The notes: generated by a model not told the origin, from the letters alone. Shown: positions 33,646-51,272, counted from the first letter of the stretch. The stretch: 64,000 nucleotides of DNA from a virus (IMGVR_UViG_3300030330_005471), one strand, 5' to 3'. Made by a program: numbers and translations.

Positions 33646-34365
33646 ATGTTTTGGTTTATATTTTTATTTTTCTCTTGCCAAATGTTTTACTATGGTGACG
33701 AAGAAGTTCAGGAACTTGAAGTAACCCAAGTCTCCAGTGGATACAACATTGGTATCACAAAAGCAATAAGTAGTTCGTTAAAAATTCATGCATTTAATAA
33801 CGAACTAGGACACAGCCACGGCTCAGGAAATCTTTTCTATGTTGGCAATCACTTATTTGTTTTAACAGCTTCACATGTTGTTGATAATGCTGACAACATA
33901 TTACTAGAAGAGACCAATGGAAATATGCTGGCAGCAAAAGTAATTTACGAAAGTACTCAAAAAGATATTGCTATTCTCTTGCCATACGGAGAGTTTACGG
34001 AAGCTAAACCGACCGGGTATGTTAGAAACAAAAGTCGAGACATATTGGCAAAAAAACTACACTACTATGGCTATCCTGAGAATCTAGATGGTTTCTTGGC
34101 CACTGGTTTCGTTAGCCAGTCAGATTACTCAAAGATCCTAATGCAATCGTATGCTTGGATGGGGTGCTCTGGTTCTGTGGTCTTTGATTCTGCTGGTAGG
34201 ACGGTGGGGATCGTTCACGCTATTTTAATCTTGGCGGAGCCTGTCACAGGGTTACCATCTGCTATTGAAAGTGTCGTTGTTGTTAACAGAGTTTACGACT
34301 TGGAGAGGAATTTTATTAGGGAGCGTTTAGTCGATGCAAAAGCTAAAGATAGGAACTCTGATTAA
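33646..34365 (+). CDS. Trypsin-like serine protease, putative lipoprotein
   Basis: LTASHVV, DIAIL, GCSGSVV triad motifs; MFWFIFLFFSC. Confidence 0.85.
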   Translation: MFWFIFLFFSCQMFYYGDEEVQELEVTQVSSGYNIGITKAISSSLKIHAFNNELGHSHGSGNLFYVGNHLFVLTASHVVDNADNILLEETNGNMLAAKVIYESTQKDIAILLPYGEFTEAKPTGYVRNKSRDILAKKLHYYGYPENLDGFLATGFVSQSDYSKILMQSYAWMGCSGSVVFDSAGRTVGIVHAILILAEPVTGLPSAIESVVVVNRVYDLERNFIRERLVDAKAKDRNSD

Positions 34366-34687
34366 AGATAACGATAAGTTGGGAGTCGTAACAAAAGTAA
34401 TTGAAATGGGCACCTTAGATGTTTCCGTTGACATCATCAACTGGAGAGCTAACTATGAAATACATTATGTAGATGGCATAGTATCAATCTTAGGATGCAA
34501 AACTGTTGAGAGATTGATCAAAGAAAACAAAATTGAAATTATATACGAGCCTACTACCCCCCTACCCCCCTCCTCCTCTTCTCAAGATATCTTGCGTGAG
34601 TACATGCACATGCAGGAAGAAAAAAGCAAAAACAAGAAAGGTCGGAGGAAGAAGTGTGCAATCGAAAGAACAAAAAAAGACCAATGA
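34334..34687 (+). CDS. SH3/KOW-like family protein
   Basis: LKIGTLIKD..LGVV. Confidence 0.6.
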   Translation: MQKLKIGTLIKDNDKLGVVTKVIEMGTLDVSVDIINWRANYEIHYVDGIVSILGCKTVERLIKENKIEIIYEPTTPLPPSSSSQDILREYMHMQEEKSKNKKGRRKKCAIERTKKDQ

Positions 34688-35073: not shown

Positions 35074-35149
35074 TTAATTGACATTTCGATGCACAGGGCA
35101 TTAATTGACATTTCGATGGGGGATTTATGAAATTAATTGACATTTCGAT
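35074..35149 (+). repeat. Three copies of 17-bp TTAATTGACATTTCGAT
   Basis: 35074, 35101, 35133; further copies at 51626, 51652 and 52911. Confidence 0.92.
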
Positions 35150-35410
35150 AGGAGACTTGGTAACGCATTTGAGCCACGATCTTGGGATCGGACTCGTTAC
35201 CGAGGTGAGAATGGATGTGCCAACAGGAGCATACAAGTGTATTTGGTCTAAAGCACCGTTTATGGAGCTGTTTATCTGTGGTTCATCGCTGAAAATTCTC
35301 TCTTGAATTATAAGGAACACATGTGCGAGAGTTCCAAACGGACATTTTTTGTCCTTTACAATATTCCCACCTGTGATATATTATTAGTAACATTCAACAG
35401 GAGGTGAATA

Positions 35411-35599
35411 ATGTTTAAAGTTGGTGACTTAGTACGGTGGCATGAAAAACTGTACATTGTAACACTTATTGATCCTAGATTTATTAGAGTCATGAGTGTT
35501 CATGATGGAGAATCTACAAGTGCTTTTCCACCCAACTGGCTTACTAAAGTCGAAACGGACAATTTCTGTCCTTTACAATCTTCATCAGACTCATTATAA
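35411..35599 (+). CDS. Array minigene MFKVGDLV
   Basis: GGAGGT RBS; family motif. Confidence 0.7.
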   Translation: MFKVGDLVRWHEKLYIVTLIDPRFIRVMSVHDGESTSAFPPNWLTKVETDNFCPLQSSSDSL

Positions 35600-35711
35600 T
35601 AAATGTATAAAGCAACGATGATGAAAAAAATAAAGTTGGACATTTTTTGACCTTTACAAATTAACATAACCTGTTATATTATATCTGTCAAATTAATTTT
35701 AGGAGAAATCT

Positions 35712-35900
35712 ATGGAAATTGGTAAATTATATAAGGTAATACGCAACGGACACACCTATCCACAAGTAGGTGATGTGATAATGTATGTACAGGGTCTTTA
35801 TAGAGGAGACATGCGTAGTGTATATTTCACAGGTCTGAATCTGAGAACTATGAAACAACACCATTATAAATATGAGGATGTGGAGGTATTATGCGAATAG
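35712..35900 (+). CDS. Array minigene ending VEVLCE
   Basis: AGGAG RBS; junction motif. Confidence 0.7.
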   Translation: MEIGKLYKVIRNGHTYPQVGDVIMYVQGLYRGDMRSVYFTGLNLRTMKQHHYKYEDVEVLCE

Positions 35901-36079
35901 GATCATTAGTAAAATGCAAGTGGCTTGACAATACCCATTTTGGTATAGTTGAGAAATGTACCTATGATAAAGGTTGCCGTTATTGGCGAGTCCATTGGTT
36001 TGGTGATGAATTCCAAAATGGAGTTTTTTGGCCACAAACACTTGAAGATGAAGAAGATTTGGAGGTAATATGCGAGTAG
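35891..36079 (+). CDS. Array minigene MRIGSLV...LEVICE
   Basis: Family motifs. Confidence 0.75.
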   Translation: MRIGSLVKCKWLDNTHFGIVEKCTYDKGCRYWRVHWFGDEFQNGVFWPQTLEDEEDLEVICE

Positions 36080-36231
36080 GTTCATTGGTAAGAGCTAGGC
36101 ATTGGGACGAAAAGGCTATTGGCATTGTCGTGTCCATCAGAAACCAACAAATATGCAAAGTGTTGTTGGTACGCAATCACGACTACAGATTTGATCAACT
36201 TATAAGAGACTTGGAGATAATATGCGAGTAG
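36070..36231 (+). CDS. Array minigene MRVGSLV...LEIICE (53 aa)
   Basis: Manual translation. Confidence 0.7.
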   Translation: MRVGSLVRARHWDEKAIGIVVSIRNQQICKVLLVRNHDYRFDQLIRDLEIICE

Positions 36232-36395
36232 GAACATTAGTGAAAGGTAAAAACATAAATTGGATAGGGGTCATTGTCAAGGTTAACGAAAGAGACTTGT
36301 CATTCTATAAGTCTCACACATACTTGGTGCAGTTTTGTACTGTGAAAAGGCAACAATGGTGTAATAGCCAAGAAATGGAGGTAATATGCGAATAG
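36222..36395 (+). CDS. Array minigene MRVGTLV...MEVICE (57 aa)
   Basis: Manual translation. Confidence 0.7.
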   Translation: MRVGTLVKGKNINWIGVIVKVNERDLSFYKSHTYLVQFCTVKRQQWCNSQEMEVICE

Positions 36396-36625
36396 GAGAC
36401 TTAGTAATGATAGGCGATCAGACCCTCATTATCGTAGCAAACAAGTGGAGTGTCGCTCAGAACGAATGGTATTGGGCAATTGCTCCTGTGGACGATCCAA
36501 GTGATGGAACTTGGCTACCCGAAGATGTTGTTAGCCATGCGTGGAGAGATTATATATGGTGGACAAAAAATGTCCTCGACAATAATATAAGGAATGGTTA
36601 TATTGTAGATAACAAAGGAGAATAA
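36386..36625 (+). CDS. Array minigene MRIGDLV
   Basis: Family motif; reads through a promoter box. Confidence 0.65.
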   Translation: MRIGDLVMIGDQTLIIVANKWSVAQNEWYWAIAPVDDPSDGTWLPEDVVSHAWRDYIWWTKNVLDNNIRNGYIVDNKGE

Positions 36626-36626
36626 C

Positions 36627-36815
36627 ATGGTATACAATACAGGAGACATAGTTGTTTTCATCAATGGATGGGGAGAACATGAACTTGGCATAGTCGTAAT
36701 TCAATATGATAACTATGACACAGAGGTTATGTTCGCAGATGGAATACAATCTTTGGTGGATGGTTGGGATGTAAAAGATGGACACTTAATCCCATTGGAG
36801 GAAACATGCAAGTAG
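36627..36815 (+). CDS. Array minigene MVYNTGDIV...LEETCK
   Basis: Family motifs. Confidence 0.7.
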   Translation: MVYNTGDIVVFINGWGEHELGIVVIQYDNYDTEVMFADGIQSLVDGWDVKDGHLIPLEETCK

Positions 36816-37000
36816 GAGACTTAGTAAGATTCAAAAGACATGTGGTAGACATGGTATGCGATGGAGAAACATGGATAGGTCTAGTGGTAGAGTCCTCTAT
36901 TGAACATCAATTCGAAGGAGTGGTGGCTATGATACAATGGATGTGCTACAATACCCCTACTCCCGAATATGTTGATGACTTGGAGGTATTATGCGAATAG
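36806..37000 (+). CDS. Array minigene MQVGDLV...LEVLCE
   Basis: Family motifs. Confidence 0.75.
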   Translation: MQVGDLVRFKRHVVDMVCDGETWIGLVVESSIEHQFEGVVAMIQWMCYNTPTPEYVDDLEVLCE

Positions 37001-37164
37001 GAACATTAGTAGCGTCCTCTTATGAAATAACAGGGAGATTTCACATAGGTGTTATTATAGATGATGATGGAGATAAACATTGGTTGGTTCACTGGCTAAC
37101 AGGAATATTCACAGGCGACATAGAGTCGTATCATGAGAGCGATTTGGAGGTACTATGCGAGTAG
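36991..37164 (+). CDS. Array minigene MRIGTLV...LEVLCE (57 aa)
   Basis: Manual translation. Confidence 0.7.
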   Translation: MRIGTLVASSYEITGRFHIGVIIDDDGDKHWLVHWLTGIFTGDIESYHESDLEVLCE

Positions 37165-37313
37165 GCAATTTAGTATCAATAAGACTCACAGATGATACAA
37201 AACAAATTGGTGTCATAGTGGAGGCAAAAGCAGAGCATTGCAAAGTCCATTGGACTACAGGCAATAGAGGTTGGTATAGAATAGATTATCTTACGGAGGT
37301 AGTATGCAAGTAG
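37155..37313 (+). CDS. Array minigene MRVGNLV...TEVVCK (52 aa)
   Basis: Manual translation. Confidence 0.7.
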   Translation: MRVGNLVSIRLTDDTKQIGVIVEAKAEHCKVHWTTGNRGWYRIDYLTEVVCK

Positions 37314-37519
37314 GAGATTTAGTAAGGATAAAAAAGGCTTGGATAGATATGTACGAGGGCTACGAGGATACTGTAGGGCTAGTGGTGTATGCCGATAGTG
37401 GCTATGGGGGAGAAAGACCTGTGGGATTTCGGAGGATCAGAATTCTACATGAAAACATAAGAGGACAAATCTATTCCGTATTCGCTGAAGAGGTTTTGGA
37501 GGTAGTATGTTCAAAGTAG
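37304..37519 (+). CDS. Array minigene MQVGDLV...LEVVCSK
   Basis: Family motifs. Confidence 0.75.
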   Translation: MQVGDLVRIKKAWIDMYEGYEDTVGLVVYADSGYGGERPVGFRRIRILHENIRGQIYSVFAEEVLEVVCSK

Positions 37520-37764
37520 GTGACTTGGTGAGAATAAAGAAAGAACATGTCGATCATGAGTACCTCAAAGAAATTGCTTGGGATTCGCATTGGACGAAAG
37601 CCCCTCTTCCACCACCCGAAAAAGATTGGCTTGGGTTGGTGATGGGTTACTTAACTGGTGACGATGGGCATGTCATAAAGGACATGATATATATACAATG
37701 GCTGTGGAGTGGTCGCACCGTTTTAGAATACACCGAGCATTTGGAGGTGGTATGCGACAACTAG
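37507..37764 (+). CDS. Array minigene MFKVGDLV...LEVVCDN
   Basis: Family motifs. Confidence 0.75.
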   Translation: MFKVGDLVRIKKEHVDHEYLKEIAWDSHWTKAPLPPPEKDWLGLVMGYLTGDDGHVIKDMIYIQWLWSGRTVLEYTEHLEVVCDN

Positions 37765-37940
37765 TTTACAAGGTTGGAGATCTGATCATCCAAATAAAAA
37801 CAGGTAGGCTCGGACTAATAACCAAGGTGGACGAACTCCAACCTTGGGGTGTTGAGATTCAATGGACAGACAATGGTGTTAAACAAATTATGCACTGGAC
37901 AAATATCGTCCATGAAGGTCTTTATAGAAAACGGACATAA
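37752..37940 (+). CDS. Array minigene MRQLVYKVGDLI...KRT
   Basis: Family motif; stop inside promoter box. Confidence 0.7.
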   Translation: MRQLVYKVGDLIIQIKTGRLGLITKVDELQPWGVEIQWTDNGVKQIMHWTNIVHEGLYRKRT

Positions 37941-38002
37941 TTTGTCCTTTACATATTTTGAGAATAGGGTATATTATAAACATCAAACAAGTGGAGGTCG
38001 AT

Positions 38003-38185
38003 ATGCGAGTAGGTGATTATGTAAGGTTCAACAACAACGAGGGTGACTTGGACGAGACACTTTGGAAGGTTGTTGGTTTCGAGGAAAGAGGTGGTCGTGC
38101 CTTTGTTCTCGTAAAGCACCCCACCGTAGGTGGTAGGTATTCATTCCCTAAAGATGGGGTTGTGGAGGTAATATGCAACAAATAA
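38003..38185 (+). CDS. Array minigene MRVGDYV...VEVICNK
   Basis: Family motifs. Confidence 0.7.
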   Translation: MRVGDYVRFNNNEGDLDETLWKVVGFEERGGRAFVLVKHPTVGGRYSFPKDGVVEVICNK

Positions 38186-38385
38186 AGGGATCGTTAGTGA
38201 GAAAGGGATCGTTAGTCATGTGGAATGTAAAAGGCTCACTCGATTATGGCGAACTAGGTGTGGTTACATCAGTAAAAGAACTTACATTAAACGAAGAATT
38301 TGATGTTGTGTGGGCAGATGGTACTGTGACAGAGTACGATCATAGTCAAATACAACATCAAAATATAAAAGTGGTCAAATTTTGA
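38173..38385 (+). CDS. Array minigene with duplicated KGSLV
   Basis: Family motif; stop inside promoter box. Confidence 0.7.
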   Translation: MQQIKGSLVRKGSLVMWNVKGSLDYGELGVVTSVKELTLNEEFDVVWADGTVTEYDHSQIQHQNIKVVKF

Positions 38386-38441
38386 CCTTTACAAATTTAC
38401 AACAACATATTATATTACATTTACAACAACAGGAGGACAAT

Positions 38442-38747
38442 ATGTTTACATCAATATCACAGATAAAAAAAGCAAACCGAGAGAATGGCTACCATTTTTT
38501 CAGCAAAGACACGATGGGCTTTTTCAAGTCCAAGACCCACAGGGGTGTGTACGGAGGTCGTTATTTCATAACCTCTGAGCAGTTTGTGTCTACTAGTGGG
38601 GAGGTATACCCCCGAATGTATACAATACGCAAGGCTCACTCTGATGGGGCTATCGACACTGTGGATACCTTTCAAAAATTTAAACACTTAGATCAGGCTA
38701 GAGACTATATCAAGTTCGAGATCTTGGGAGAAGAACAATGGGATTAG
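38442..38747 (+). CDS. Conserved phage hypothetical protein (ANRENGYHFFSKDTMGFF...YFITSEQ)
   Basis: AGGAGG RBS after boxed promoter; not an array-family member. Confidence 0.75.
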   Translation: MFTSISQIKKANRENGYHFFSKDTMGFFKSKTHRGVYGGRYFITSEQFVSTSGEVYPRMYTIRKAHSDGAIDTVDTFQKFKHLDQARDYIKFEILGEEQWD

Positions 38748-38884
38748 GGTCACTAGTAAAACATGAAGGTCTTTTACAAGAGATTGGCATTATCACAAAG
38801 ATCTGTGATGAATTGGCAACAGTTTTCTTCCCCGAAATGAATACGAAGGTACTGGTGTACCTTGATGACTTGGAGGCATTATGA
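38738..38884 (+). CDS. Array minigene MGLGSLV...DDLEAL (48 aa)
   Basis: Manual translation. Confidence 0.65.
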   Translation: MGLGSLVKHEGLLQEIGIITKICDELATVFFPEMNTKVLVYLDDLEAL

Positions 38885-39084
38885 CAAAATTAAATATTAG
38901 GATAGGTTCTCTGTTACAATGGCAAGGAATAACGCAGTGTCGTGGAGAACTGGGAATAGTTATTGGGTTACTAAATGGCAATGGGTATGATGGCTTTGTT
39001 GTACATTGGAGTGTCGATGGTGAAATTGTGGACTATGTAAACGATGAAGCCATAAGTAACCTCATGGAGGTACTATGCAGGTAG
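38881..39084 (+). CDS. Array minigene IRIGSLL...MEVLCR
   Basis: Family motifs. Confidence 0.7.
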   Translation: MTKLNIRIGSLLQWQGITQCRGELGIVIGLLNGNGYDGFVVHWSVDGEIVDYVNDEAISNLMEVLCR

Positions 39085-39248
39085 GTAGTTTAATAAAATG
39101 GACAGAGGCAGATGGACATATCTATTACGGGATTGTCACCAAGGTCGAAGGACAGAAAACTTTCATCCTGTGGGCTGATGGACTTGAAATTGACTACTGT
39201 TTGACAAGCGATATAATGGACAGCCAAATGGAGGTAGTATGCGAGTAG
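39075..39248 (+). CDS. Array minigene MQVGSLI...MEVVCE (57 aa)
   Basis: Manual translation. Confidence 0.7.
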   Translation: MQVGSLIKWTEADGHIYYGIVTKVEGQKTFILWADGLEIDYCLTSDIMDSQMEVVCE

Positions 39249-39439
39249 GCGATCTGATAGAATATACTGAAAATGACGAAACATTCATCGGTCTTGTGGT
39301 CAAGGTCGGTCTTGCCTCAAATATGGGAAAAACAGCTATCAAGATCCAATGGTGTTTTCATGGTGAAGATAAAGATTTCTTCGATGAAACATCGTGGCTA
39401 TGCACAGACGAGGTATGTTTGATCTCAAAACGGACATAA
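39239..39439 (+). CDS. Array minigene MRVGDLI...KRT
   Basis: Family motif; stop inside promoter box. Confidence 0.7.
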   Translation: MRVGDLIEYTENDETFIGLVVKVGLASNMGKTAIKIQWCFHGEDKDFFDETSWLCTDEVCLISKRT

Positions 39440-39480
39440 TTTGTCCTTTACAATAATTCTCATTAGGTTATAATGTTTAT

Positions 39481-39645
39481 ATGAAGATAAAAGTTGGAAA
39501 GATAGTTAAATACAGAGACAATATGCCTCCGAATCTTTGGATAGTACTGACGAAACTCTATGGTGGTCTATGGGAGGTAGCCGAGGTACAGTGTCTCACT
39601 AACAGGAAAATTGCACACACAAAAGACATAAAGGTGGTAAAATGA
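39481..39645 (+). CDS. Array minigene MKIKVGKIV (54 aa), probably leaderless
   Basis: ATG 6 nt after TATAAT. Confidence 0.6.
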   Translation: MKIKVGKIVKYRDNMPPNLWIVLTKLYGGLWEVAEVQCLTNRKIAHTKDIKVVK

Positions 39646-39803
39646 AAACAGGTACATTGGTAAAAGTCTATCACAAAGGTGTTGGTGTTATAGTGGATAG
39701 AGGTATCCACCATAATGGCGATTGGAAATATTTAATATTATTTATCAGCGATGGATATAGAGCATGGTGGACAGAAAACCATTTGGAGGTAATATGCGAA
39801 TAG
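39642..39803 (+). CDS. Array minigene MKTGTLV...LEVICE (53 aa)
   Basis: Manual translation. Confidence 0.7.
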   Translation: MKTGTLVKVYHKGVGVIVDRGIHHNGDWKYLILFISDGYRAWWTENHLEVICE

Positions 39804-39949
39804 GAACATTGGTAACAACAGGTGGTTGGCTAGGAATTGTCGTGGCAATATATGATGATGATATTACATCTATTATGTATGAGATTCACTTTGAGGATGG
39901 AGACAGAGATGTTTTCTATATAGATGACTTGGAGGTATTATGCGAGTAG
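39794..39949 (+). CDS. Array minigene MRIGTLV...LEVLCE
   Basis: Family motifs. Confidence 0.75.
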   Translation: MRIGTLVTTGGWLGIVVAIYDDDITSIMYEIHFEDGDRDVFYIDDLEVLCE

Positions 39950-40125
39950 GGACATTGGTTAAAAGTAAGTGGGCAACGAATATCATAGGTATTCTTTTGG
40001 AAAAACTCACCCTCGGTGATGATGTAGAGTGGGAAGAAGAGTGTTGGAAAGTCTATTGGATTGGCAATGGAGCAATCTTCGACCAAACTCATGAAGAAGA
40101 AGAGGACTTGGAGGTACTATGTTAG
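39940..40125 (+). CDS. Array minigene MRVGTLV...LEVLC
   Basis: Family motifs; close paralogue of 35891. Confidence 0.75.
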   Translation: MRVGTLVKSKWATNIIGILLEKLTLGDDVEWEEECWKVYWIGNGAIFDQTHEEEEDLEVLC

Positions 40126-40276
40126 AACACTTGTTAAACTGTCATGGTGAATGGACTTATCTTTTATCCTTGATAGACTTGTTCCCCACACTACGGTATT
40201 ATCTAAACGGACAAATTCTGTCCTTTACAAAAACACACAACGAGTTAGATTGTAAATATGAAACAACGGAGGAAAT

Positions 40277-41672
40277 ATGAGACTACTAAATTGGACTGAG
40301 GCTTTTATGGAAGGCATGGACTTTATAAAAAAGGTATGGATTGGTATGTACCGAGAGGAAAACGAGTGGAGGGGTACACTGGAAGAATTCTATCCTTCTC
40401 TTGCGATAGCAAACTTTAGTCAACAAAAACTAGAGGACTACCTAAAGGAGGCGATAGAGGGTAGGGCTTGGCTACCAAAGGGTATGCGAGTGTGCTATGA
40501 CGAGAATGAACAAATACTTATAACTGTAACCAAAGAGGTGTAACATGGCTTATGTACAGAATTGGAATCCCGATAACAAGTTATCTGAGAAGGAGGCAAT
40601 AGCCTTCCTCACTAGGGTAGTACCCGATATAACAGACAATGCTTTCCATATACGGAAAGAGTCTGACGATGGTGGCTCTGTCATTTCAGTATACATAGAG
40701 ATGAATGAAGATGGATCTAGAGGCTATCACAACAAACCAGTAAAATATGATGAACTAAAAGGGTGGCGAGTCGTATGGCTCACCTGTCCTCCACAATATA
40801 CGAACAAATGGAGAAAAAGATGATGAATCCAATGGAAATACTTAGATACGAACCGAAAAAGGGCGATGTTATCATCTATAATGATGGCTCATACACAGAG
40901 GTTTTACAAGACTTACAACAAGGTAGCCCATTTATCAAGGGCAAGTTTCACGCACTTGGTGTCGAGCCAAGCGAGATCAACATACACACTCCTCTTATAC
41001 GAACCCAAATGATACAAGGCAAATGCCACCTGTGTCGCAAGGAGGTTGAAGATGTACAAGATAATTCAGATACAACCTCAGAGTAACATGATCGTGGCTC
41101 ATATCAAACTCAATGACAAGTACTACTGTGTAGGGGATGATGGGTACTCCGTTATGATCTTCAAAGGTGACGAGGGTGGCAACATTGTTTCGTGGATAGA
41201 ACTAGCAAAATTTGACAATAAAATGCTGAAAGATGTTGTGCGAAACAAGTCATCCTTTCGGACTTGTTTGCGAATCGGACAAAAAATGTCCTAGACAAAT
41301 TATCCATAACGCATTATATTACTAACATCATTCAACAACGAGGTTAATATGAAATGGAAACGAAACAAGGGAACATTCAGAGTCTATGGTGGTCATGGTT
41401 GGACAAACTATGAGGGTTCACACTATGTTTGTTATCCTTTTATGATCAATCGATCTCTCAACAATGAAAGCAGATGGGCTTTGACCCATATCGCTTGTGG
41501 CAGAGAGGTCGGAAACTTTAGAACACTGGCTGTTGCTAAAGAGTGTGCTTTAGCATTGCAACACTATAAACATTGGTTCTTACCCACAGAAGAACTTGTA
41601 TTAAAGTCTATGGTTGATAGTGGAGAGAAACAAGAGATCATGAATGTTGTCCAAGACCACAGAGTAAAATAA
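40277..41672 (+). other. Cluster of five small hypothetical genes (40277-40543, 40545-40823, 40820-41086, 41052-41294, 41349-41672)
   Basis: RBS-preceded, tightly packed ORFs behind boxed promoters. Confidence 0.7.
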
Positions 41673-41748
41673 AAACGGACATTTTTTGTCCTTTACATAT
41701 TTTGAGAATAAGATATATTATATTTACACAACAACATAGGAGACTATT

Positions 41749-42090
41749 ATGAAGATAAAAGTATGCAGACACTGTGAGGACGAATTCGATTGTCGCTCCA
41801 CTCGAAAGGCTACCGTAGGGGGGTACATAGATGAATGTCCCGACTGTGTGGAAGAACTGGGAACAGAAACCCATGTCAAATACCAAGGAGTCATATCGGG
41901 AGAGGGTAAACAAGCCTGTATTCAGATATTGTCCTTCGAATCCAAAGCAGACGCTGAGGAATACAAGCGAAGATGGGAACGCAATAGTGGTTGGAACAAC
42001 CGAAGATCGGGTGGTCTAAACGATAGTTCTATCAAGTTCAAGAAGGTCGGTGAGACACGAGGGAACGCAAACCATAAAGGCAAAGGCTAA
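41749..42090 (+). CDS. C4 zinc-finger hypothetical protein
   Basis: CRHC...CPDC. Confidence 0.65.
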   Translation: MKIKVCRHCEDEFDCRSTRKATVGGYIDECPDCVEELGTETHVKYQGVISGEGKQACIQILSFESKADAEEYKRRWERNSGWNNRRSGGLNDSSIKFKKVGETRGNANHKGKG

Positions 42091-42101
42091 CAGGAGACAC
42101 T

Positions 42102-42299
42102 ATGCAAATAAAAGTAGGAGACTTGGTTTATAGAAAGCAACATTCGTATTTAAACATAAGGCACAATGACGAAATATGGCTTGTGATCGGCAAGGCTCAG
42201 AGGTGTGGCTTGGGCGAATTCCACCCTTGGATACAGATAGAGAATATTCACAACGGTAATAGGATTTCTTGTAAAGAACCTATGCTGATGAAAATATAA
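42102..42299 (+). CDS. SH3/KOW-like family minigene MQIKVGDLV
   Basis: Family motif; AGGAG RBS. Confidence 0.7.
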   Translation: MQIKVGDLVYRKQHSYLNIRHNDEIWLVIGKAQRCGLGEFHPWIQIENIHNGNRISCKEPMLMKI

Positions 42300-42375
42300 A
42301 ACGGACATTTTTTGTCCTTTACAAACTTACAACAACATATTATAATACTTATACATTCAACAACGGAGGTCAATT

Positions 42376-43179
42376 ATGGCTATTAACAACAGAACAGATA
42401 ACAACTATCGTTCTTCATCAAGGTGTACATTCTGTCAAGGTAATCATACCATCACAGGTTGCACAAAAGTATATGAAGAGGCTGAACAGGCAAAGAAATT
42501 ATCATTCTCTCAGAGAACATTTAAGCAACACTATGCTATGCAATACATAGAACTCAAAGAATCTCGCTCCAAGAAGAGAAAAACTGGCACTAAAAAGTGT
42601 GGGTACTGTGGTGGTGCAGACCATACTCGCAGAAATTGCAGTGTTATGGAGGCAGATAGAGAATTTCTCTTGAGAGCCAACCAACTATGGAGAAGAATGT
42701 ATGCCCATCTATCGGTAGAGTATGGCTTTGCTCCAGCTAGTCTTATCAAGTACCGAGAGAGAGATAGGTACAACTACAACACACAAAAGTACGAAACCAA
42801 TGAGAATCTGTACCTTATTGGCTCTGAATTGCCGACCAATCTATCTGTCTTTGCCTTATCGGGAGATCACTCTCTGAGGCAAGAGATCAAAATTCCAGCT
42901 GTAGGTCGTGATAGACCAATGAGTGTGAGAGATTTCGTACATGGAAAGCCATGTCGCAAAGCCCTAACAGGGCATGGTTATTGGTGGGGTGACGATGATA
43001 GTATCGAGATCGTAACCAGATCCACCTATCAGTATCCCGAAGAATGGTTCGAGGGTGAGTGTGATGACATAGATTATGTTCTTAAAAAGTGGAACAGAGA
43101 AAGGATTGAAAGAGATATTCTGTCTCCAATCCGTTCAGAACTCATTCCATTTGCACAAACAACAGGCTTTGATATATAA
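42376..43179 (+). CDS. Protein with two CCHC zinc knuckles
   Basis: CTFCQGNHTITGC and CGYCGGADHTRRNC. Confidence 0.75.
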   Translation: MAINNRTDNNYRSSSRCTFCQGNHTITGCTKVYEEAEQAKKLSFSQRTFKQHYAMQYIELKESRSKKRKTGTKKCGYCGGADHTRRNCSVMEADREFLLRANQLWRRMYAHLSVEYGFAPASLIKYRERDRYNYNTQKYETNENLYLIGSELPTNLSVFALSGDHSLRQEIKIPAVGRDRPMSVRDFVHGKPCRKALTGHGYWWGDDDSIEIVTRSTYQYPEEWFEGECDDIDYVLKKWNRERIERDILSPIRSELIPFAQTTGFDI

Positions 43180-43247
43180 CGGACATAATTTGTCCTTTAC
43201 AAACTTACAACAACATATTATATTATAAACATAAACAAGGAGTCGCT

Positions 43248-43649
43248 ATGACAAACTTAACTAGAGCAAAGAACTACTCAGAATTCTGTGAAAACTGGAG
43301 AGATGGTGTATCATGTTATTACACTGGATGGAAAGCTCTCACATGTGATGGTACAAGTATCATGTTAAATTGTGGTAGTGGGAGAGATCCCATAATAATA
43401 GCAGAGAAAGTGGGTGAATACCTTGTGGTTTACAACCACAGACCAAAAGACTATGCGTCCGATCTCATGAAATATTGGACTTGGACTACGAGAAGGTGTC
43501 CAAATTTGGTGTATGCTACTCTTGGTAAACCAAAAGATGTCACACATGATAGTTGGTTATCCAATCAGTTTTATGATGGGCTATTGTCTGTGGCTACCCA
43601 CCTACTACACCCCGATCAGTCCATAGAAGAATTGATGGATGGGTCATGA
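43248..43649 (+). CDS. Hypothetical protein, paralogue of 43836
   Basis: MTNLT, VYNH, KDYAS, LVYATLG. Confidence 0.7.
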   Translation: MTNLTRAKNYSEFCENWRDGVSCYYTGWKALTCDGTSIMLNCGSGRDPIIIAEKVGEYLVVYNHRPKDYASDLMKYWTWTTRRCPNLVYATLGKPKDVTHDSWLSNQFYDGLLSVATHLLHPDQSIEELMDGS

Positions 43650-43843
43650 TTGGGGTCGGTGACTTGGTAACTTGGAGGATCAAAGAGTCCCTAGAGTGGG
43701 CAGACCCCCCACTCGCTGTGGTCACAGATTCTATCGAGGTTCCCGATGGAAAATGGTTTAGAGTAACATTTTTAACAGGCTACAGAGCCTCTCAGACATT
43801 CGAACTAAAAGAAAAACAGATAAGGAGAATAGACAATGACTAA
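43646..43843 (+). CDS. SH3/KOW-like family minigene MIGVGDLV
   Basis: Family motif. Confidence 0.7.
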   Translation: MIGVGDLVTWRIKESLEWADPPLAVVTDSIEVPDGKWFRVTFLTGYRASQTFELKEKQIRRIDND

Positions 43844-44249
43844 TTTAACACACTTTCAAGAGGTACTATTAGGTAACACAGTTCACATAGGAAGAACCGA
43901 CATAGCAAGGCTAGGGAATACATTATATCGTAGATGTATTTACGACTATGACAAGAAGAACAATAGAATACGAGGTTGGTTGCCCATACTCAAACTAGAA
44001 GAAGGGCAATGGGTAGGTTATAACTATTCGGGCAAGGACTTTGCCTCGTATCTTCTGAACAACCAGTGGCAACGATCTCACTATTGGTCAGAATTAAAGT
44101 ATGTACAAATTGGTCGTGGTATCGGCTGTAAGGGTACAAAGAGATTATGGTCTTGGCAATGCTCGTTTAAACGGTTCATGACCAAGATGATCAACCCAAC
44201 AATGGATATGCTGTTGCCCGAAGATACTGTCTTTGACCTAGTAGGATAA
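43836..44249 (+). CDS. Hypothetical protein, paralogue of 43248
   Basis: MTNLT, GYNY, KDFAS, LKYVQIG. Confidence 0.7.
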   Translation: MTNLTHFQEVLLGNTVHIGRTDIARLGNTLYRRCIYDYDKKNNRIRGWLPILKLEEGQWVGYNYSGKDFASYLLNNQWQRSHYWSELKYVQIGRGIGCKGTKRLWSWQCSFKRFMTKMINPTMDMLLPEDTVFDLVG

Positions 44250-44321
44250 AAACGGACATTTTTTGTCCTTTACAATATCTCATAACTTGTTACAATATAG
44301 ATATAAAAGGAGGACAGAACA

Positions 44322-44468
44322 ATGTCTAAAAAGAAGAAACAACAACCATCTAAACGCAATCCTATCCAACAAATGCATATAGAACAGAACCGTAAGGCAG
44401 GTGTGCATACGGATAAGAAGAAAGAGCGAAACAAGAAAGCATGTCGAGGGAGACAATATGACAGATAG
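44322..44468 (+). CDS. 48-aa highly basic peptide (KRNP...RKAGVHTDKKK)
   Basis: AGGAGG RBS after boxed promoter; manual translation. Confidence 0.65.
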   Translation: MSKKKKQQPSKRNPIQQMHIEQNRKAGVHTDKKKERNKKACRGRQYDR

Positions 44469-44657
44469 AGAATTTATAAAAAAACTACTAGAGATGATGG
44501 AGATCAACGCACTTGCCGATTGGATCACCAACGATCCTTGGGACGAGTTCGAGTCATTGAGGGTCATGATCGAAGAACATTTAAAACGGACATAATTTGT
44601 CCTTTACAATATTTCATAACTTGTTATAATATAGACATAACCAACAAGGAGTACATC

Positions 44658-45896
44658 ATGTCAGATGAAACAACAACAACTAAACAGGAAGAGATCCTAG
44701 ACTTTGATCTCGATCTTCACACTTATCGCTTGCTACAGGCAGAACCATTCTTCTCAGCCCTATCTCGTAGGATACACAAGTCCTCCACCACAGCTATACC
44801 CACAGCAGGTGTGAAGATGAACGAGGGGAGTGGTAACTTTGAGATGATCTACAACCCAAATTTCTTTGCCAAACTTTCGGACAAGGAAAAGCTCGGTGTC
44901 CTTATGCACGAGTTCTACCACATCATCTTTGAGCATGTCACAGGTCGGCTACCTCCCGAAGGTATGTCCAAGATGTGGAACATTGCCACAGACTTGGCGA
45001 TCAACTCTCACTTGATGGACTCACTCCCCGAACAAGGTCTTTTCCCAACAAGAGGTCGGTTTGAGGACTACCCTGTGGGTATGTCGGCTGAATGGTATTA
45101 CTCCAAGTTGCAACAGGATAAAGAGAATGGCGAAGGTGCTTTCGATCCTAAACATCAACAAGGCGAAGGTGGTGGCGAAGGTCAAGGTGGGGACAATATG
45201 CCCGACTCCCTAGACGATCACAGTGGTTGGTCTGATGTAGACCAAGACACACGACAAATGGCTCAAGAACGAATGAGACAAGCTGTTGAGGACGCTGTGA
45301 AAGAGGTACAATCTCGTGGTCAAGGTTGGGGTAATGTGTCTAGTGGTATGAGAGAACGAATCATTGATATGATCACACCAAAGGTTGACTGGCGAAAAGT
45401 TCTTAGATACTTTATCAAGACCTCCCAAAGACAGAACAAGAGGTCTACGGTACGGAGAGTCAACCCTCGCTATCCCTACATTCATGCAGGGAAGAAGGTC
45501 AACAGAACAGCAAAAATTGCGATCTCTATTGACCAATCGGGTTCCGTATCAGATGATATGCTCAGTGCCTTCTTCTCAGAACTCAATGGGCTTGCTCAGC
45601 AAGTCGAGTTCACTGTGATCCCTTTCGATACCCAAGTAGACGAGTCTAAAGTCTATGTATGGAAGAAAGGTCAGAGGAGACAAGTCGAACGAGTCCTTTG
45701 TGGTGGTACATGTTTCAATGCACCAACCAAGTTTGTGAATGACAATGGTGGCTTTGATGGTCATATTATACTCACAGATATGGAGGCTCCAAAGCCTGTG
45801 GCTAGTAAGTGTCAGAGAATATGGTTCACCACAGAACAGTGTGCCAAGAACCCATACTTTCAGACCAATGAAAAAGTTATCGGGATCAGTATGTAA
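44658..45896 (+). CDS. HExxH metallopeptidase-like (DUF2201-type) plus VWA domain protein
   Basis: PTAGV, LMHEFYH, WNIATDLAIN, LDDH..W, IDQSGSV, GGTCF, LTD. Confidence 0.88.
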   Translation: MSDETTTTKQEEILDFDLDLHTYRLLQAEPFFSALSRRIHKSSTTAIPTAGVKMNEGSGNFEMIYNPNFFAKLSDKEKLGVLMHEFYHIIFEHVTGRLPPEGMSKMWNIATDLAINSHLMDSLPEQGLFPTRGRFEDYPVGMSAEWYYSKLQQDKENGEGAFDPKHQQGEGGGEGQGGDNMPDSLDDHSGWSDVDQDTRQMAQERMRQAVEDAVKEVQSRGQGWGNVSSGMRERIIDMITPKVDWRKVLRYFIKTSQRQNKRSTVRRVNPRYPYIHAGKKVNRTAKIAISIDQSGSVSDDMLSAFFSELNGLAQQVEFTVIPFDTQVDESKVYVWKKGQRRQVERVLCGGTCFNAPTKFVNDNGGFDGHIILTDMEAPKPVASKCQRIWFTTEQCAKNPYFQTNEKVIGISM

Positions 45897-45907
45897 GATC
45901 CCGATAG
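45879..45907 (+). terminator. Stem-loop at end of VWA gene
   Basis: TATCGGGATC-N9-GATCCCGATA perfect inverted repeat. Confidence 0.55.
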
Positions 45908-46033
45908 AGTGACACCTCCTTATGAGGTGGGGTATGGGTGGGCAATAAGTTTTTTTAAAACGGACATAATCTGTCCTTTACAATAATTACTGAACAGGGT
46001 ATATTACTATTATACAGACTGAGGGATTCGATA

Positions 46034-47039
46034 ATGAAATTCAAAACAGTGGTTATCATTGAAACAGATGACGAGGGCTTTCTAACCCTTAAGGCTCTGT
46101 TACCCAATGATGGGATTGTTTGGACAAGAATTGTCGGGCAGAACAAGGTCGCAGTGAGACTTAAAGACGATATAGACATAGAATGGGTTGAGAAACAACT
46201 AAACTCATTACATAGAACACTAAACATCTGAGGTGCATGATGGCACAAGAATGGAAATACAGAGAACACAAGGGAAAGCAAGGAAGGTTCCGAATAGGCG
46301 ATCTCGTACAACTCTCAGCCTATGGTAAGAGTACTGATCAGAACACCAACCCACACTTTGATGGAAACGAACTTGGTCTTATCATTGAGATAGGAGGAAA
46401 CACTAGATTCGGTGGTGATATTCAAAAATACCCCATTGTAGTGCAGTGGATCAATGTCCCAAAGGGAACCAATGTTGCCAAGAGGTTCTTCTTCAGAGAG
46501 TTAAAACTAAAACGGACATAATTTGTCCTTTACAATATTCAACCAACATATTATATTATAAACATCTTCAACAACAAGGAGTCTATCATGGACACTAAAG
46601 ACAACAACAACATCACGATACAACTATCAGTATCAGATGAACTATTAAACAAGGTTCTCCGAGCCTTAGTAACACCACCCCCAAGCCCTATGGGTGGAGG
46701 TATGCCTATCCCTATGAGTTTGTTATCGGGTTTACTAGGTCAAGCCCCACCATCTGACGACGAAAAGTCTGAGGAAAAGCCAACCGTAGGTTTCAAAATT
46801 AAAGGAGCGAAATAATGACTATCATATCAACAAAGCAACTGAGCAATGGTTTAGGTCAAACTGTCATTACAACACTTGTGGTGCATAATGGAAACTACTT
46901 TGTAGTATCCGAGAATCCTAGAGAGACTCTGATATTCCCTAGCAACAGCAAAGGGGAACACAAGTTCCTTGAGGTAGGATCGGGTTTCGATACAGCAGAT
47001 TGCCTCAACCAAATCGAAAACGGACAAATTATGTCCTAG
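46034..47039 (+). other. Four small genes (46034-46231, 46237-46521 GDLV family, 46588-46815, 46815-47039) between the VWA and AAA genes
   Basis: Two boxed-promoter units. Confidence 0.7.
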
Positions 47040-47113
47040 ACTTTATTTTCAAACCTAGTTATATTATAAACATCATTCAAACGATAACTTAACAACAAAC
47101 AATGGAGACTATT

Positions 47114-48169
47114 ATGTCTATTGATTACAAAACCCTATTCACCATCCTTCCCCATGTCTTTGAGGCGAGATTCCCTGTCCTCTTACGAGGTCGGCATGGT
47201 ATCGGTAAGTCCACAGTAGTATACCAACAAGCCAAAGCAATGGGTTTGCCTGTGGTAGAAAGACGAGCCTCACAGATGACCGAAGGTGATCTACTTGGTC
47301 TACCCAAGATCGATGGTAATGTCACAGCTTGGCTTGCACCCGAATGGCTTGACAAGGCTTGCAAAGAACCAGTTATCTTGTTCCTTGACGAGGTTGATCG
47401 TGCTACCCTAGAGGTACGACAGGGTATCTTCGAATTGTGTGACTCTCGTAAGATCGCAGGTCACAAACTCCATCCCGACACACTTATCTTTGCTTGTGTC
47501 AATGGTGGTAAGCATGGTGCAGAGTATCAAGTCAACGAGTTCGATCCAGCCGAACTTGATCGCTACACTGTCTTTGATGTAGAGCCTACCGTAGAGGACT
47601 GGCTTGACTGGGCTAAAGGCAATGTCATTGACGAGATATGGGATTTCATCAACCACAATCACCAACATCTCGAACACAAGGATACCTTCGAGCCTAACAA
47701 GATCTATCCTTCAAGACGATCTTGGGAAAGACTCTCAGACGCATTGCAAAGTGTCGGTGAGGTAAAGCATAGTCCTACCCTATACCACCTTGCTCATTCT
47801 TTTATCGGCTTTGAGGGTGCTATGGCTCTGAATGACTATATCAAGAACTACTCTAAAGTTGTGACTCCCGAACAAATTCTTGACGAGGGTAAGGTAGACT
47901 TGACTGAAAAGTTCAAGATCAACGACCATAACAGTCTTATTGAAAAGTTCAAGGCTAAAGAGTGCTTTGATACGGAGTTATCTGACAGTCAGTTACAGAA
48001 TCTCGCTGAATACTTTGTGACACTCCCATCTGAGATCGCTATGACCTTGTGGCAAGCGATGGGATCGGGCAAGGAGGCAACCAAGAATGTCGCTAGGTTG
48101 CATGGTTTACAGACTAAAACTGGCTCTGTGCAAGACTTTATCGTCAGTATCCTAACAGCAGGTCAATAG
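47114..48169 (+). CDS. MoxR-like/AAA_5 ATPase
   Basis: GRHGIGKS, GDLLGLP, LFLDEVDRA, FDPAELDRY, PSRRSWE. Confidence 0.9.
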   Translation: MSIDYKTLFTILPHVFEARFPVLLRGRHGIGKSTVVYQQAKAMGLPVVERRASQMTEGDLLGLPKIDGNVTAWLAPEWLDKACKEPVILFLDEVDRATLEVRQGIFELCDSRKIAGHKLHPDTLIFACVNGGKHGAEYQVNEFDPAELDRYTVFDVEPTVEDWLDWAKGNVIDEIWDFINHNHQHLEHKDTFEPNKIYPSRRSWERLSDALQSVGEVKHSPTLYHLAHSFIGFEGAMALNDYIKNYSKVVTPEQILDEGKVDLTEKFKINDHNSLIEKFKAKECFDTELSDSQLQNLAEYFVTLPSEIAMTLWQAMGSGKEATKNVARLHGLQTKTGSVQDFIVSILTAGQ

Positions 48170-48179
48170 ACCTACTGAT

Positions 48180-48210
48180 CCTCCACCATGACAGTGTAGT
48201 CTGGTGGAGG
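48180..48210 (+). terminator. Stem-loop after AAA gene
   Basis: CCTCCACCA...TGGTGGAGG inverted repeat. Confidence 0.5.
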
Positions 48211-48293
48211 AACCTACTCGGACATTTTTTGTCCTTTACAAATTATTCTGAACCTATTATATTATAAACATCAACAACACAAGAGGTGATCAG

Positions 48294-51148
48294 ATGGAAC
48301 AAGATAATATACCCGATGTAGGAGATTTAGTCACAGTATTTAGATCAATCCCTAACGCAATAAACCGTATGGGATTGGTCATAAAGGTTGAGTACAGTAG
48401 TCAAGTACCCATATTCACTGTACAATTTCCAGATGGAACTGTTCGCACCTTGGGAAGATTGTGGATCGAAAAGATTAAAAAATAAAAACGGACATTTTTT
48501 GTCCTTTACAAATTCTTTTAAACCTATTATATTACTAGTATAACCAACAACAAGGAGTTATCCATGAGAATACGAAACAACCAAGGTGCTACAATGACCC
48601 CCAAGTGTGCGAACCTTATCCGAGACTTGAACAAACTAGTTCGTGAAGGTCTTTCCATTGAAGAGGCAGAGGAATACCTTAAACTTGAAAATTGGCGATG
48701 TGATCAAGGCTATGCACCTCACAAAGGCGATTGGAAAAAGGCTAAAAAGCGAATCCTCCAAGTAGCAGAGTTCAGAAAGACAGGTGCTACTACCCTCAAG
48801 GGTGGGTGGGGTAAGCGATGAATATCGGAGACATAATGCTATACAACAATCGAGAAAACCCTCGCCTAAACGATACCTTAGTTCTCATAATGGGAAACAA
48901 TGGTCGTATCCACAGGAAAGTAATGTTCTTGAAAGATGGATTTATAACAGAGAACTGTTGGGTAGGTTACTTATTACCAATAGGAGATAACCATGTCAGT
49001 AGGTGAAATTTATTTGTGGAATGATGGAGTGTTGGATCACTTGGTCATGATCGTACCATCGGGGAACGGAGTAGGGAATTGGGTTGGGTGGTGTTCAGTT
49101 CAGTTCATCAGTGGAGGACGAAAATTTCAAGTCCAACACTACCAACTTAAACCTTTGGAGAACAGATGAAAGAAGAATTCAAGATAGGCGATCTCGTTGA
49201 GGTCAAGATTCTCAGAGATCATCCCGAAATTGGAATAGTGGTAGGCATTGAAGATCCCGAAAGAACCAACAATGGTCTATATGTATTGATCGAGGGTTGG
49301 ACTCCTAGTGGAGGCATGGTTAAGGCTTGGCTACCATTGAACAGAGTAAAAAAAATAAAAACGGACAAAATTTGACCTTTACAATTTAAACAGACCTTGA
49401 TATAATACTAATACATTCAACAACAGGAGAACATTATGTTAAAAAGAAGTAGGTACTCACAACAATATAAAACCATTCAACAGGCAAGGGCTTGGGCTTA
49501 TGAACAAGATTTTAATGATGTATGGTATCTTATCCACAACAGAGAGAAGAACAGATACCAGTTGGTAAATGATGGTCGGCTTTACTACCTACAACATTGT
49601 TGGGATCTTGACTTTGAAATTATTGAAACTTGGGAATAGATATGAAGGTAGGTGATTTGGTGTTGCTCGACATAGGATATGGCAACCCATACGGTATGAA
49701 AAAGCCACCCGAATTAGCGATCATCAGAGGTATCAACACAGACTATAGCCCAACTCGATACTACCTAACAGTGGTGTCAACAGGAAAACGCAAGTGGGCA
49801 ACTCAAAATTTCATCGAACCAGTGGAGGAAACATGCAAGTAGGAGATTTAGTGTGGTCATTGTCAGATGACATCAAAGGCTCGAAGAAACGATTGGCGAT
49901 CATCCTCGCCTTAGACTATGACCATTGGAATCCATATTTCATCCAGTTAGTCGCTTGTGGGAGACAGGGAAAAACAGCAAGAAAGTATCTCGAACCATTG
50001 GACAGAGACTAAACGGACAAAAAATGTCCTTTACAAATCCCAACCACCCTGTTATAATATAAACATCATTCAAACGAACCAAGGAGTTCAACATGACTTT
50101 AGTAGACCTTCAAGAACTATTCAGCGATTCACTCTCTCTAACACGAGAGGAGATCAGCAAACTCGATAAACAAGCCCTCGTGGAAAATGCTCATGGTGAT
50201 CCTAAACTCCCTCGGAGAGAACGAAACATTCAAGCGATACGAAACAATCTCTTGTTGAGTATGATCGAGTGGAACGAGATAGACCACGACAGCCTACTTG
50301 ATCGTTGGTATTTCATAACTAGCAGAGCGATTGAACTGGGAGATTTCTGTCCCGACTTGGCAAAGGTACATATGTTGGGTGTAGAGCATGTTTTATCTCT
50401 TCGGTCATAATTTGTCCTTTACATTCTGAGACAACAGGTTATATTACTGATATGAACAACGGAGAAAACATGGAACCATTTTTAGATATAGGGACTCTCG
50501 TAATATACGAACTGTGGCGACCGAACATAGAAGATATGGAATTGGTTGTGGGGTTGATAACCAAGGTCAACCGAAAGATATGGAATAACCACAGAATCCT
50601 TATTCCAAAGTACAATATAGAAAGAATGGAGAACAGGTGCAAGATATACATCTTCACAGAGGAGAACTGGGACAAACTATACAAGGAGAGAGTAGCATGG
50701 AAAAACTAAAGATCGGAGATCTTGTCAAGTATCCTAGAGGCATTAACGATGATAGCAACGGAATTTTGTGTATTGTGATAGAGATAAAAGGAAACACAGG
50801 ACAATACATAGTACAGAGCATAGCCACAGGTGAGCATTATGTAGCGATTGATCGTTGGCTCACACACCCACCCCTATACCCGAACCAACGGAGACAACAA
50901 TGAAAAATAATGTAGACTTTATTGAACCAACAACCAAGTACACCATAGGGGATCTAGTACAGTACCCCATGTCCAAAGCAGTAGAAGAAGGAAAAGTTAC
51001 ACCAACCCTATGTCTCGTTGTAGAGATACGGAATGGATACTATAGGCTTCAGTGTACTAGGACTCGGTTGTTTCATAACACCACAGAACAGTGGATAGCC
51101 CTACCCACCTACTACCCTACCCCTATGGGGTCACTAAAAACTCCCTAG
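48294..51148 (+). other. Second cluster of minigenes, mostly GDLV family (48294, 48818, 49166, 49642, 49833, 50470, 50697, 50900) plus 48564, 49436 and 50093
   Basis: Family motifs; boxed promoters. Confidence 0.75.
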
Positions 51149-51272
51149 ATGGTCATTAAGGGCTTGTATGCGTACCTTGGAGTATATGTCCGTATTCGTT
51201 TGTACTCGCCTGTATATACTGTATCAAAGTCACCCTACGAGTGTAACTATCACCCCGAAAAGGAAAACGACA

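Follow-up and report, generated by a model that had tools for sequence, protein, structure and literature searches.

Small early genes without annotation abound in large phages, and the mechanism by which such genes turn over is known for few systems, essentially the promoter-early stem-loop (PeSL) elements of T4-type phages. The viral sequence IMGVR_UViG_3300030330_005471 raises this question because it carries a tandem array of minigenes that begin and end alike: what keeps these genes in one format, and are they exchanged as whole units? We analysed a 64-kb stretch of this DNA (64,000 nucleotides (nt), here called the window), and all positions are counted on that whole stretch. The phage is large, uncultured and marine, with a genome of roughly 183 kb. 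Our reading, to which we assign a probability of roughly 70%, is that the array is a hyperplastic locus of about 23 barrel proteins, chained by a shared junction and shuffled by homology-guided exchange at the short identities that the junctions provide.

Between 35127 and 40125, all on the + strand, a hidden Markov model (HMM) search identified 21 clear and three marginal family members together with one unrelated DUF7447 gene. The clear and marginal minigenes encode 48-85 amino acids (aa). The marginal members are the genes at 39481, at 36627 (hhalign probability 39%) and at 36386, where the alignment is limited to the first 12 residues. An earlier interpretation of this DNA, referred to here as the sequence-only reading, had counted about 24 minigenes in the array; the tandem array itself was confirmed, with the count divided into 21 clear and three marginal members. 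Its estimate of about 20 more members elsewhere in the window was too high, as the weaker HMM hits outside the array number roughly 11-12.

The minigenes are chained by a 33-nt junction. Its pattern, GGAGGTNNTATGCRARTAGG, has 13 matches on the + strand when up to 3 mismatches are allowed, compared with 0.11 expected from shuffles, and the ATG codons of these matches lie at 35891, 36070, 36222, 36386, 36806, 36991, 37155, 37304, 39075, 39239, 39794 and 39940, with an outlier at 49833. The sequence-only reading had listed these starts along with 37507, 37752 and 38173, which are genuine and belong to a variant with a 13-nt overlap, and 40119, which is only vestigial. In this vestigial junction (40108-40125) the Shine-Dalgarno (SD) site and the ATG at 40119 are intact, the upstream gene stops at TAG 40123-40125, and the next open reading frame (ORF) does not belong to the family. 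It marks the end of a block and is conserved in two other loci (L006 and L013). At the typical junction the two genes overlap by 10 nt and the same bases are read in two frames, as had been proposed and as is visible in both the ORF list and the logo of 159 junctions. The upstream frame reads TTG-GAG-GTA-nTA-TGC-rAr-TAG as L-E-V-[LIV]-C-[E/K]-stop, while the downstream frame reads ATG-CrA-rTA-GGn as M-[R/Q]-[V/I]-G.

We compared the window with 45 IMG/VR loci (designated by L-numbers) that were chosen by a DNA-pattern scan for the exact junction motif. The 493 members from the window and these loci provided 447 unique start contexts, which were classed by the overlap with an upstream family gene: 10 nt in 159, 4 nt in 49, 14 nt in 27 and 13 nt in 14, with no upstream member in 174. 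The 159 unique junctions of the 10-nt class are conserved from -11 to +21 relative to the ATG, and the logo is flat on either side. The C-terminus of the upstream protein depends on the overlap class. Genes that end in an ATGA overlap finish with LEV[LIV] and have no Cys, and block-terminal genes have other ends, for example KVVK. Because the C-terminus tracks the overlap class in this manner, the invariant Cys is a by-product of an ATG followed by C and not a functional residue. The block-initial gene at 38003 has the same GGAGGT-ATG-CGAGTAGG start as is found elsewhere, with nothing reading through from upstream. This indicates that what stays constant is the translation start region of each gene together with its first strand, which the upstream protein borrows as its last strand. 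Copy correction between the junctions within a genome was not found, as junctions of one genome resemble each other no more than they resemble those of other genomes (7.61 vs 7.82 mismatches per 33 nt, permutation p about 0.14). The junction is held constant by three simultaneous constraints, namely ribosome binding, strand 1 and strand 5, and not by copy correction among junctions.

The arrangement of the cassettes was then compared among relatives. Fourteen loci share flanks, with GroEL, an amidohydrolase, a trypsin-like peptidase and a 117-aa gene upstream, the DUF7447 gene inside the array and four genes downstream, and within these conserved flanks the syntenic loci have mosaic gene orders. 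The three complete arrays (window, L027 and L052) have about a fifth of their cassettes in common, and their flank proteins are 58-95% identical. Matches between contigs in blastn begin 9 to 11 nt before the junction ATG and end at +10 or at +19 to +22. The bin from -12 to -6 contains 23% of match starts compared with 2% at random, and the interval from +1 to +22 contains 31% of match ends compared with 6% at random. Among 63 indels between collinear matches, 40 are centred on a family junction and eight more on SD-ATG junctions to genes missed by the HMM; four coincide with a palindrome-promoter element described below, and about ten lie outside the arrays. Within arrays, about 48 of roughly 53 indels are therefore at junctions. 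Gene order is thus not kept among relatives, and the breaks fall where the sequence-only reading had placed the gain, loss and swapping of whole genes: indels, swaps, duplications and single-cassette transfers all break at junctions, including in contigs that are 96.6-99.9% identical.

Individual events illustrate this pattern. L039 differs from L028 by a two-cassette insert of 322 bp that is bounded by two identical 23-nt junction copies, where L028 has one copy. The independent assemblies L046 and L048 are 99.9% identical over 6.4 kb apart from a single 197-bp cassette that only one of them has; in the one without it, the two junctions are merged into a clean hybrid, with the crossover within a shared 15-nt stretch over the G-D-L-V codons. 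L038 and L053 have 96.6% identity as far as ATGCGAATAGG and show no relationship past that point. L026 contains fresh tandem duplicates, OG16|OG16 and OG9|OG9. The window cassette at 37304-37519 is 89.5% identical to its L026 counterpart at the nucleotide level (dS, the synonymous divergence, is 0.36), in a match that begins 9 nt before the ATG, despite a flanking gene in L026 that is 54% identical to that of the window by protein and has no nucleotide match, so this is a candidate single-cassette transfer. The promoter-headed OG7 cassette of L052 (15614-15784) is 95% identical by protein to that of L027 (4991-5161) and occupies opposite places in the two arrays, the far end in L052 and the start in L027.

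A second conserved element accompanies the junctions. GGWCA-N5-TGWCC palindromes, each followed by TTTACA-16/17-TATATT, a sigma-70-like promoter, occur 28 times in the window (35340-53838) compared with 0.16 expected, and six of them are predicted from these motifs to divide the array into short transcription blocks. The type at 37933-37975 is found at several places in related loci. The architecture of this element resembles that of PeSLs. The features of the array and the outlying junction are as follows.

35127-35306, + strand: minigene of 59 aa, OG0, weak member (HMM E-value 2.8e-7; orthologs in 8 loci)
35340-35382, + strand: palindrome GGACA-N5-TGTCC and sigma-70-like promoter, ahead of the gene at 35411
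35411-35599, + strand: minigene of 62 aa, OG40, weak member by HMM
35638-35680, + strand: palindrome and promoter, heads block A
35712-35900, + strand: minigene of 62 aa, OG7, opens block A; C-terminus VEVLCE, 10-nt overlap
35891-36079, + strand: minigene of 62 aa, OG1; canonical junction at both sides
36070-36231, + strand: minigene of 53 aa, OG23; junction pattern
36222-36395, + strand: minigene of 57 aa, OG45; 80.6% nucleotide identity to a cassette of L010, with the match running exactly from junction to junction
36386-36625, + strand: 79-aa gene closing block A; junction-type N-terminus MRIGDLV, body not alignable with the family
36561-36604, + strand: palindrome and promoter, heads block B
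36627-36815, + strand: 62-aa gene, probable divergent member; C-terminus LEETCK, 10-nt overlap
36806-37000, + strand: minigene of 64 aa, OG95; junction pattern
36991-37164, + strand: minigene of 57 aa, OG108; modelled as a five-strand barrel
37155-37313, + strand: minigene of 52 aa, OG90; junction pattern
37304-37519, + strand: minigene of 71 aa, OG15; the cassette shared with the distant contig L026
37507-37764, + strand: minigene of 85 aa, OG12; 13-nt overlap junction variant
37752-37940, + strand: minigene of 62 aa, OG75, closes block B; no LEVxC tail
37933-37975, + strand: palindrome and promoter, heads block C
38003-38185, + strand: minigene of 60 aa, OG77, opens block C; SD-ATG-CGAGTAGG start, no upstream gene reading through
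38173-38385, + strand: minigene of 70 aa, OG207; 13-nt overlap
38382-38747, + strand: DUF7447 gene of 121 aa, a non-member inside the array, conserved in relatives
38738-38884, + strand: minigene of 48 aa, OG238; C-terminus DDLEAL, 4-nt ATGA overlap
38881-39084, + strand: minigene of 67 aa, OG245, from the ORF list and HMM
39075-39248, + strand: minigene of 57 aa, OG69; junction pattern
39239-39439, + strand: minigene of 66 aa, OG41, closes its block; junction pattern
39432-39474, + strand: palindrome and promoter, heads block E
39481-39645, + strand: minigene of 54 aa, marginal member by HMM
39642-39803, + strand: minigene of 53 aa, OG10; 4-nt overlap on the upstream side
39794-39949, + strand: minigene of 51 aa, OG98; junction pattern
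39940-40125, + strand: minigene of 61 aa, OG105, final array gene; LEVLC-stop tail over the vestigial SD site and ATG
49822-49854, + strand: outlying canonical junction, between weaker members at 49642-49842 and 49833-50012

OG0 is the first gene of the array in all syntenic relatives. The gene at 36386-36625 has a Trp-rich body and is kept at 81-86% nucleotide identity in eight loci; it may be a chimera of the junction module and another body.

The array proteins are predicted to share one small fold. The AlphaFold2 model of the member at 36991, whose protein is identical to an entry in BFVD (A0A516M749), is a five-strand barrel with a mean confidence (pLDDT) of 93, in which the last strand is LEVLC. 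Foldseek matched Tudor, KapB and Spt5 KOW domains at template-modelling (TM) scores of 0.67-0.76, and VIA-align gave Z scores up to 8.3, to Hpy99I and Spt5 KOW. The models are consistent with the small SH3/KOW-like beta-barrel that the sequence-only reading had suggested, and point to an SH3/Tudor/KOW-type barrel of about 50-70 residues in which the strands are conserved and the loops vary. An alignment of 82 sequences has 18% mean column identity, with M1, G4, L6, G20, E53, V54 and C56 conserved. The same fold is predicted for a scattered member outside the array (49166-49372; pLDDT 82 in a model built from the paralog alignment), for which a homolog search returned nothing but itself. A profile of the eleven scattered members, the gene at 34334 and three array-edge members matched the array profile with an hhalign probability of 97.5%.

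The likeness to known SH3/Tudor/KOW barrels (SMN and PHF1 Tudor, Spt5/NusG KOW, PWWP and YorP of B. subtilis SP-beta) is one of five-strand topology, with TM scores of about 0.7, Z of 6.9-8.3 and root-mean-square deviations of 1.6-2.7 A over 50-54 residues. These domains have only 7-24% identity to the array proteins, and Pfam and PHROG scans of ten members gave sub-threshold noise only; the KOW profile PF00467 had no match among the ten even at E up to 1. One metagenomic homolog has a precomputed PF00467 tag. The family consensus has a single conserved aromatic position, the W in V-x-W, compared with the 3-4 conserved aromatics of a Tudor aromatic cage. The match is at the level of the fold only, so no function is transferable from these barrels. 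The isoelectric points of the members range from 4 to 9.6, implying heterogeneous surfaces.

Searched with a profile of the family, 1.84 billion representatives from public metagenomes gave 2,790 clusters at 50% identity, nearly all of them stand-alone, unnamed proteins of 48-70 aa. Fused forms occur among the metagenomic proteins P0125, P0135, P0138 and P0150, which comprise three two-domain proteins and one 524-aa protein with six repeats; one two-domain fusion joins in frame exactly at ...DEVI-MIGSLV... Clustering at 50% identity divides the 493 members into 297 clusters, of which only five are represented twice in a single locus. For every member in the window the nearest relative is in another contig (up to 92% identical), and paralogs within the window are at most 44% identical. 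In ortholog pairs the median ratio of nonsynonymous to synonymous divergence (dN/dS) of the interiors is 0.22, with 84% of pairs below 0.5. By these measures the array is a set of old, individually conserved genes, each cassette type evolving under purifying selection. The idea of a rapidly self-diversifying library does not agree with paralogs of this age or with cassette types that each have orthologs elsewhere with such dN/dS values.

We propose the following mechanism. The locus is probably expressed early, from five sigma-70-like promoters that follow the palindromes and split the array into blocks, and within a block the genes are chained by overlapping stop and start codons, mostly of 10 nt and also of 4, 13 or 14 nt. 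Every cassette starts with GGAGGT, 3-5 nt, ATG and the codons [R/Q]-[V/I]-G-x-L-V, the predicted strand 1. In the upstream frame this start region is read as the last strand, LEV[LIV], extended by C-[E/K] as ATG-C is read as TGC, and ended by the TAG that arises from GTA-GGN. The by-product is a set of short identical patches of 7-28 nt at both ends of all cassettes, which general recombination machinery would use as crossover points. Whole genes could in this way be deleted, inserted, duplicated, replaced or passed between co-infecting relatives while frame, ribosome site and coupling are kept. Exchange is bounded by junctions in the loci compared here; the machinery behind it would presumably be general. 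Domain scans of 33 of the 35 window ORFs of 150 aa or more, all but those at 53703 and 55152, revealed no integrase, transposase or recombinase.

Several observations weigh against homology-guided exchange. Any two junctions of one genome share only a short stretch of exact identity (median 7 nt; 20 nt or longer in 7% of pairs; maximum 28 nt), and homologous exchange should therefore be inefficient. Only two of the events identified are recent, and the distance of one of these to a contig end is 72 nt. Some of the apparent swaps may be fast divergence in place, as with OG1 and OG22, which occupy the same position and have 36% identity. What points to early expression, translational coupling or any binding function is consensus motifs and the predicted fold. 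All junctions are alike and only in-format products survive, so selection acting on random recombination would also put breakpoints at the junctions. Codon usage adds a further point. Codon choice at synonymous sites is far more uniform in the junction than in the interiors (GTA 80% vs 24%; TTA 66% vs 16%), a strong excess of the kind that the sequence-only reading had sought beyond the needs of protein and ribosome binding. N-termini without an upstream family gene show a similar codon bias (TTA 50%, GTA 55%); the excess is thus mostly not specific to junctions and mostly reflects the start region itself, and it was rejected as a recombination signal.

An ordinary, old array of tandem paralogs, with a junction kept for translation and folding alone and with random illegitimate recombination followed by selection for intact in-format boundaries, would draw on these same observations. 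Coding and SD constraints account for the conservation of the junction, there is no homogenisation within genomes, most exact homologies between junctions do not exceed 12 nt, and the 5' codon bias is not junction-specific. We nonetheless consider this account unlikely. The crossover of L046 and L048 is located within a 15-nt identity and its product is a clean junction hybrid, the L039 insert lies between two identical 23-nt direct repeats of which L028 has one copy, and the proportion of in-array events in junction format, together with a high turnover relative to flank divergence, is hard to obtain with random breaks. The hybrid junction and the direct repeats tip the balance towards homology-guided exchange. 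Rapid divergence in place, by diversifying selection or targeted mutagenesis of positionally stable genes, appears very unlikely as the main source of diversity. It would explain why OG1 and OG22 have diverged so far as positional homologs inside flanks of 82% nucleotide identity, and why identities of 45-60% are common among cassette orthologs against 95% for GroEL, but the low interior dN/dS argues against it, as do cassettes that are 89-95% identical at different positions in divergent backgrounds and the clean presence/absence events of L046/L048 and L038/L053. A diversity-generating retroelement would comprise a reverse transcriptase with a template/variable repeat pair; the scanned window ORFs contain no reverse transcriptase domain, no template repeat was seen in the window, and the interior dN/dS also speaks against such an element.

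We regard as most improbable of all a dedicated, integron-like system in which a site-specific recombinase or nuclease encoded by the phage acts on the junction or on the palindrome near it and moves cassettes, perhaps with circular intermediates. The format is highly uniform over hundreds of cassettes in many phages, the palindrome and promoter form a second conserved element that also marks breakpoints, and the mini-circles of T4-type PeSLs offer a precedent (PMC2839356). However, the scanned ORFs of the 64-kb window include no tyrosine-recombinase integrase beside the array, and the position of the crossover varies, being after ATGCGAATAGG in L038/L053 and inside the G-D-L-V codons in L046/L048, as expected of homology and not of a fixed cleavage site. 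The junction also exists in at least four overlap variants, and its consensus TTGGAGGTAnTATGCrArTAGG is not palindromic, unlike the attC-like imperfect palindrome expected at a cassette boundary. The sequence-only reading had called the array a self-formatting cassette system, a description that the data do not favour. As the junctions are not homogenised within a genome, no recombinase domain was detected in the scanned ORFs and the synonymous excess is mostly non-specific, the interchangeability of the cassettes is more plausibly a by-product of constraints on translation and structure. Homology-guided shuffling of the array looks like a passive, short-homology process and not a dedicated system.

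The closest known parallel is provided by T4-type phages, in which PeSL elements reshuffle the modules of hyperplastic regions (Arbiol et al. 2010, PMC2839356; Comeau et al. 2014, PMC4122927). A PeSL consists of an early promoter and a stem-loop terminator, and its mini-circles were found by outward-facing PCR (PMC2839356). In both systems small ORFs, non-essential in the T4-type phages, occupy a hyperplastic region and are bounded by a short conserved repeat, the indels and replacements that distinguish close relatives have their breakpoints at the element, and no dedicated recombinase is known. The window also has the PeSL-like palindrome and sigma-70-like promoter in 28 copies, with few breakpoints there. 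The main linker of the array differs in that it is a stop/start overlap coding for a last strand, a ribosome site and a first strand, and not an intergenic regulatory cassette; a promoter with a stem-loop is found only in the palindrome-promoter element between blocks, where a role as terminator is putative. The cassettes of the array are also of one protein family, whereas PeSL-bounded ORFs are unrelated ORFans, and the array phage is not T4-like because it has a DnaE-type polymerase. The shuffling is best described as a coding-sequence variant of the linker-mediated module shuffling known from PeSLs, alongside a PeSL-like promoter element in the same locus.

Modular evolution as formulated by Botstein and Campbell involves interchangeable modules with conserved 'linker' sequences (as summarised in PMC2839356). 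The array is similar in that conserved borders ensure correct placement and expression after exchange, and different in that its modules are single genes of 50-85 aa with the linker inside the coding sequence. Other systems exchange parts of proteins. In pilin variation (pilE/pilS), variable cassettes are swapped via a conserved coding segment, and Zhang and colleagues are said to have described, in 2012, polymorphic toxin loci (Rhs/CDI orphan modules) that exchange cassettes at conserved coding motifs. There too a conserved coding segment beside a variable one is the homology for swaps, but there one expressed gene has its variable end replaced from silent donor copies, whereas the array cassettes are complete, separate genes with no apparent toxin/immunity logic.

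If homology-guided exchange is correct, the homology that guides the exchange of whole genes lies within coding sequence and is fixed by three overlapping constraints. The array offers a concrete case in which translation signals dictate a protein C-terminus, including a 'conserved' Cys, and in which constraint can make genes modular. The encoded proteins would most likely be accessory early proteins, each of which would bind a different host or defence component and be kept as a variable repertoire; that they are binders with roles in host takeover or anti-defence, as the sequence-only reading had put forward, is conjecture. The arrays mark candidate host-interaction proteins in abundant marine phages that are directly screenable, from an uncharacterised family of about 2,790 clusters. 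A stronger version, which we offer tentatively as possible but doubtful, is that the junction format is itself an adaptation. A marine phage clade would keep a recombinase-free 'plug-and-play' standard, SH3-like cassettes would be swapped between co-infecting phages and expressed at once, and the arrays would be a pan-genomic library of binders against host and defence targets with arms-race turnover.

The genomic setting is that of a phage distant from those in culture. A megablast search of the array region against 50,697 phage records gave zero nucleotide matches and a tblastn search with one array member against phage records also gave zero, therefore leaving no cultured relative to compare. 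The closest match to the window GroEL in the same 50,697 records is only 44% identical. A contig of 183,020 bp carries one of the window's proteins, and a metagenome scan with the upstream peptidase gave a nearest relative of the window at 74% and also supplied the near-identical contig pairs. Genes on the window encode DnaB helicase, ribonucleotide reductase, the DnaE-type polymerase, GroEL, ClpP, ThyX and Dam methylase. Upstream of the array, at 9603-34365, the phage has its own protein-quality-control set of a DnaJ-domain protein, ClpP, GroEL and the trypsin-like peptidase, plus an adenosine deaminase and the amidohydrolase.

The 117-aa gene at 34334-34687 is immediately upstream of the array in all relatives; its N-terminal half is family-like and is followed by a Pro/Ser stretch and then a very basic tail. 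Further downstream, 44520-48169 holds a conserved pair formed by a DUF2201 protein, with a putative metallopeptidase and a VWA-like domain, and a MoxR-like AAA_5 ATPase. The gene at 44520-45896 had been labelled 'HNH endonuclease' through PHROG 1314; Pfam does not support this label and instead gives DUF2201 and a putative metallopeptidase domain, and the gene was not counted as a nuclease candidate. Finally, GC skew is 0.27-0.30 over 36001-40000 compared with about 0.1 elsewhere in the window, a difference that probably arises from the G-rich junction and the Gly/Val/Glu/Trp-rich coding sequence of the array.

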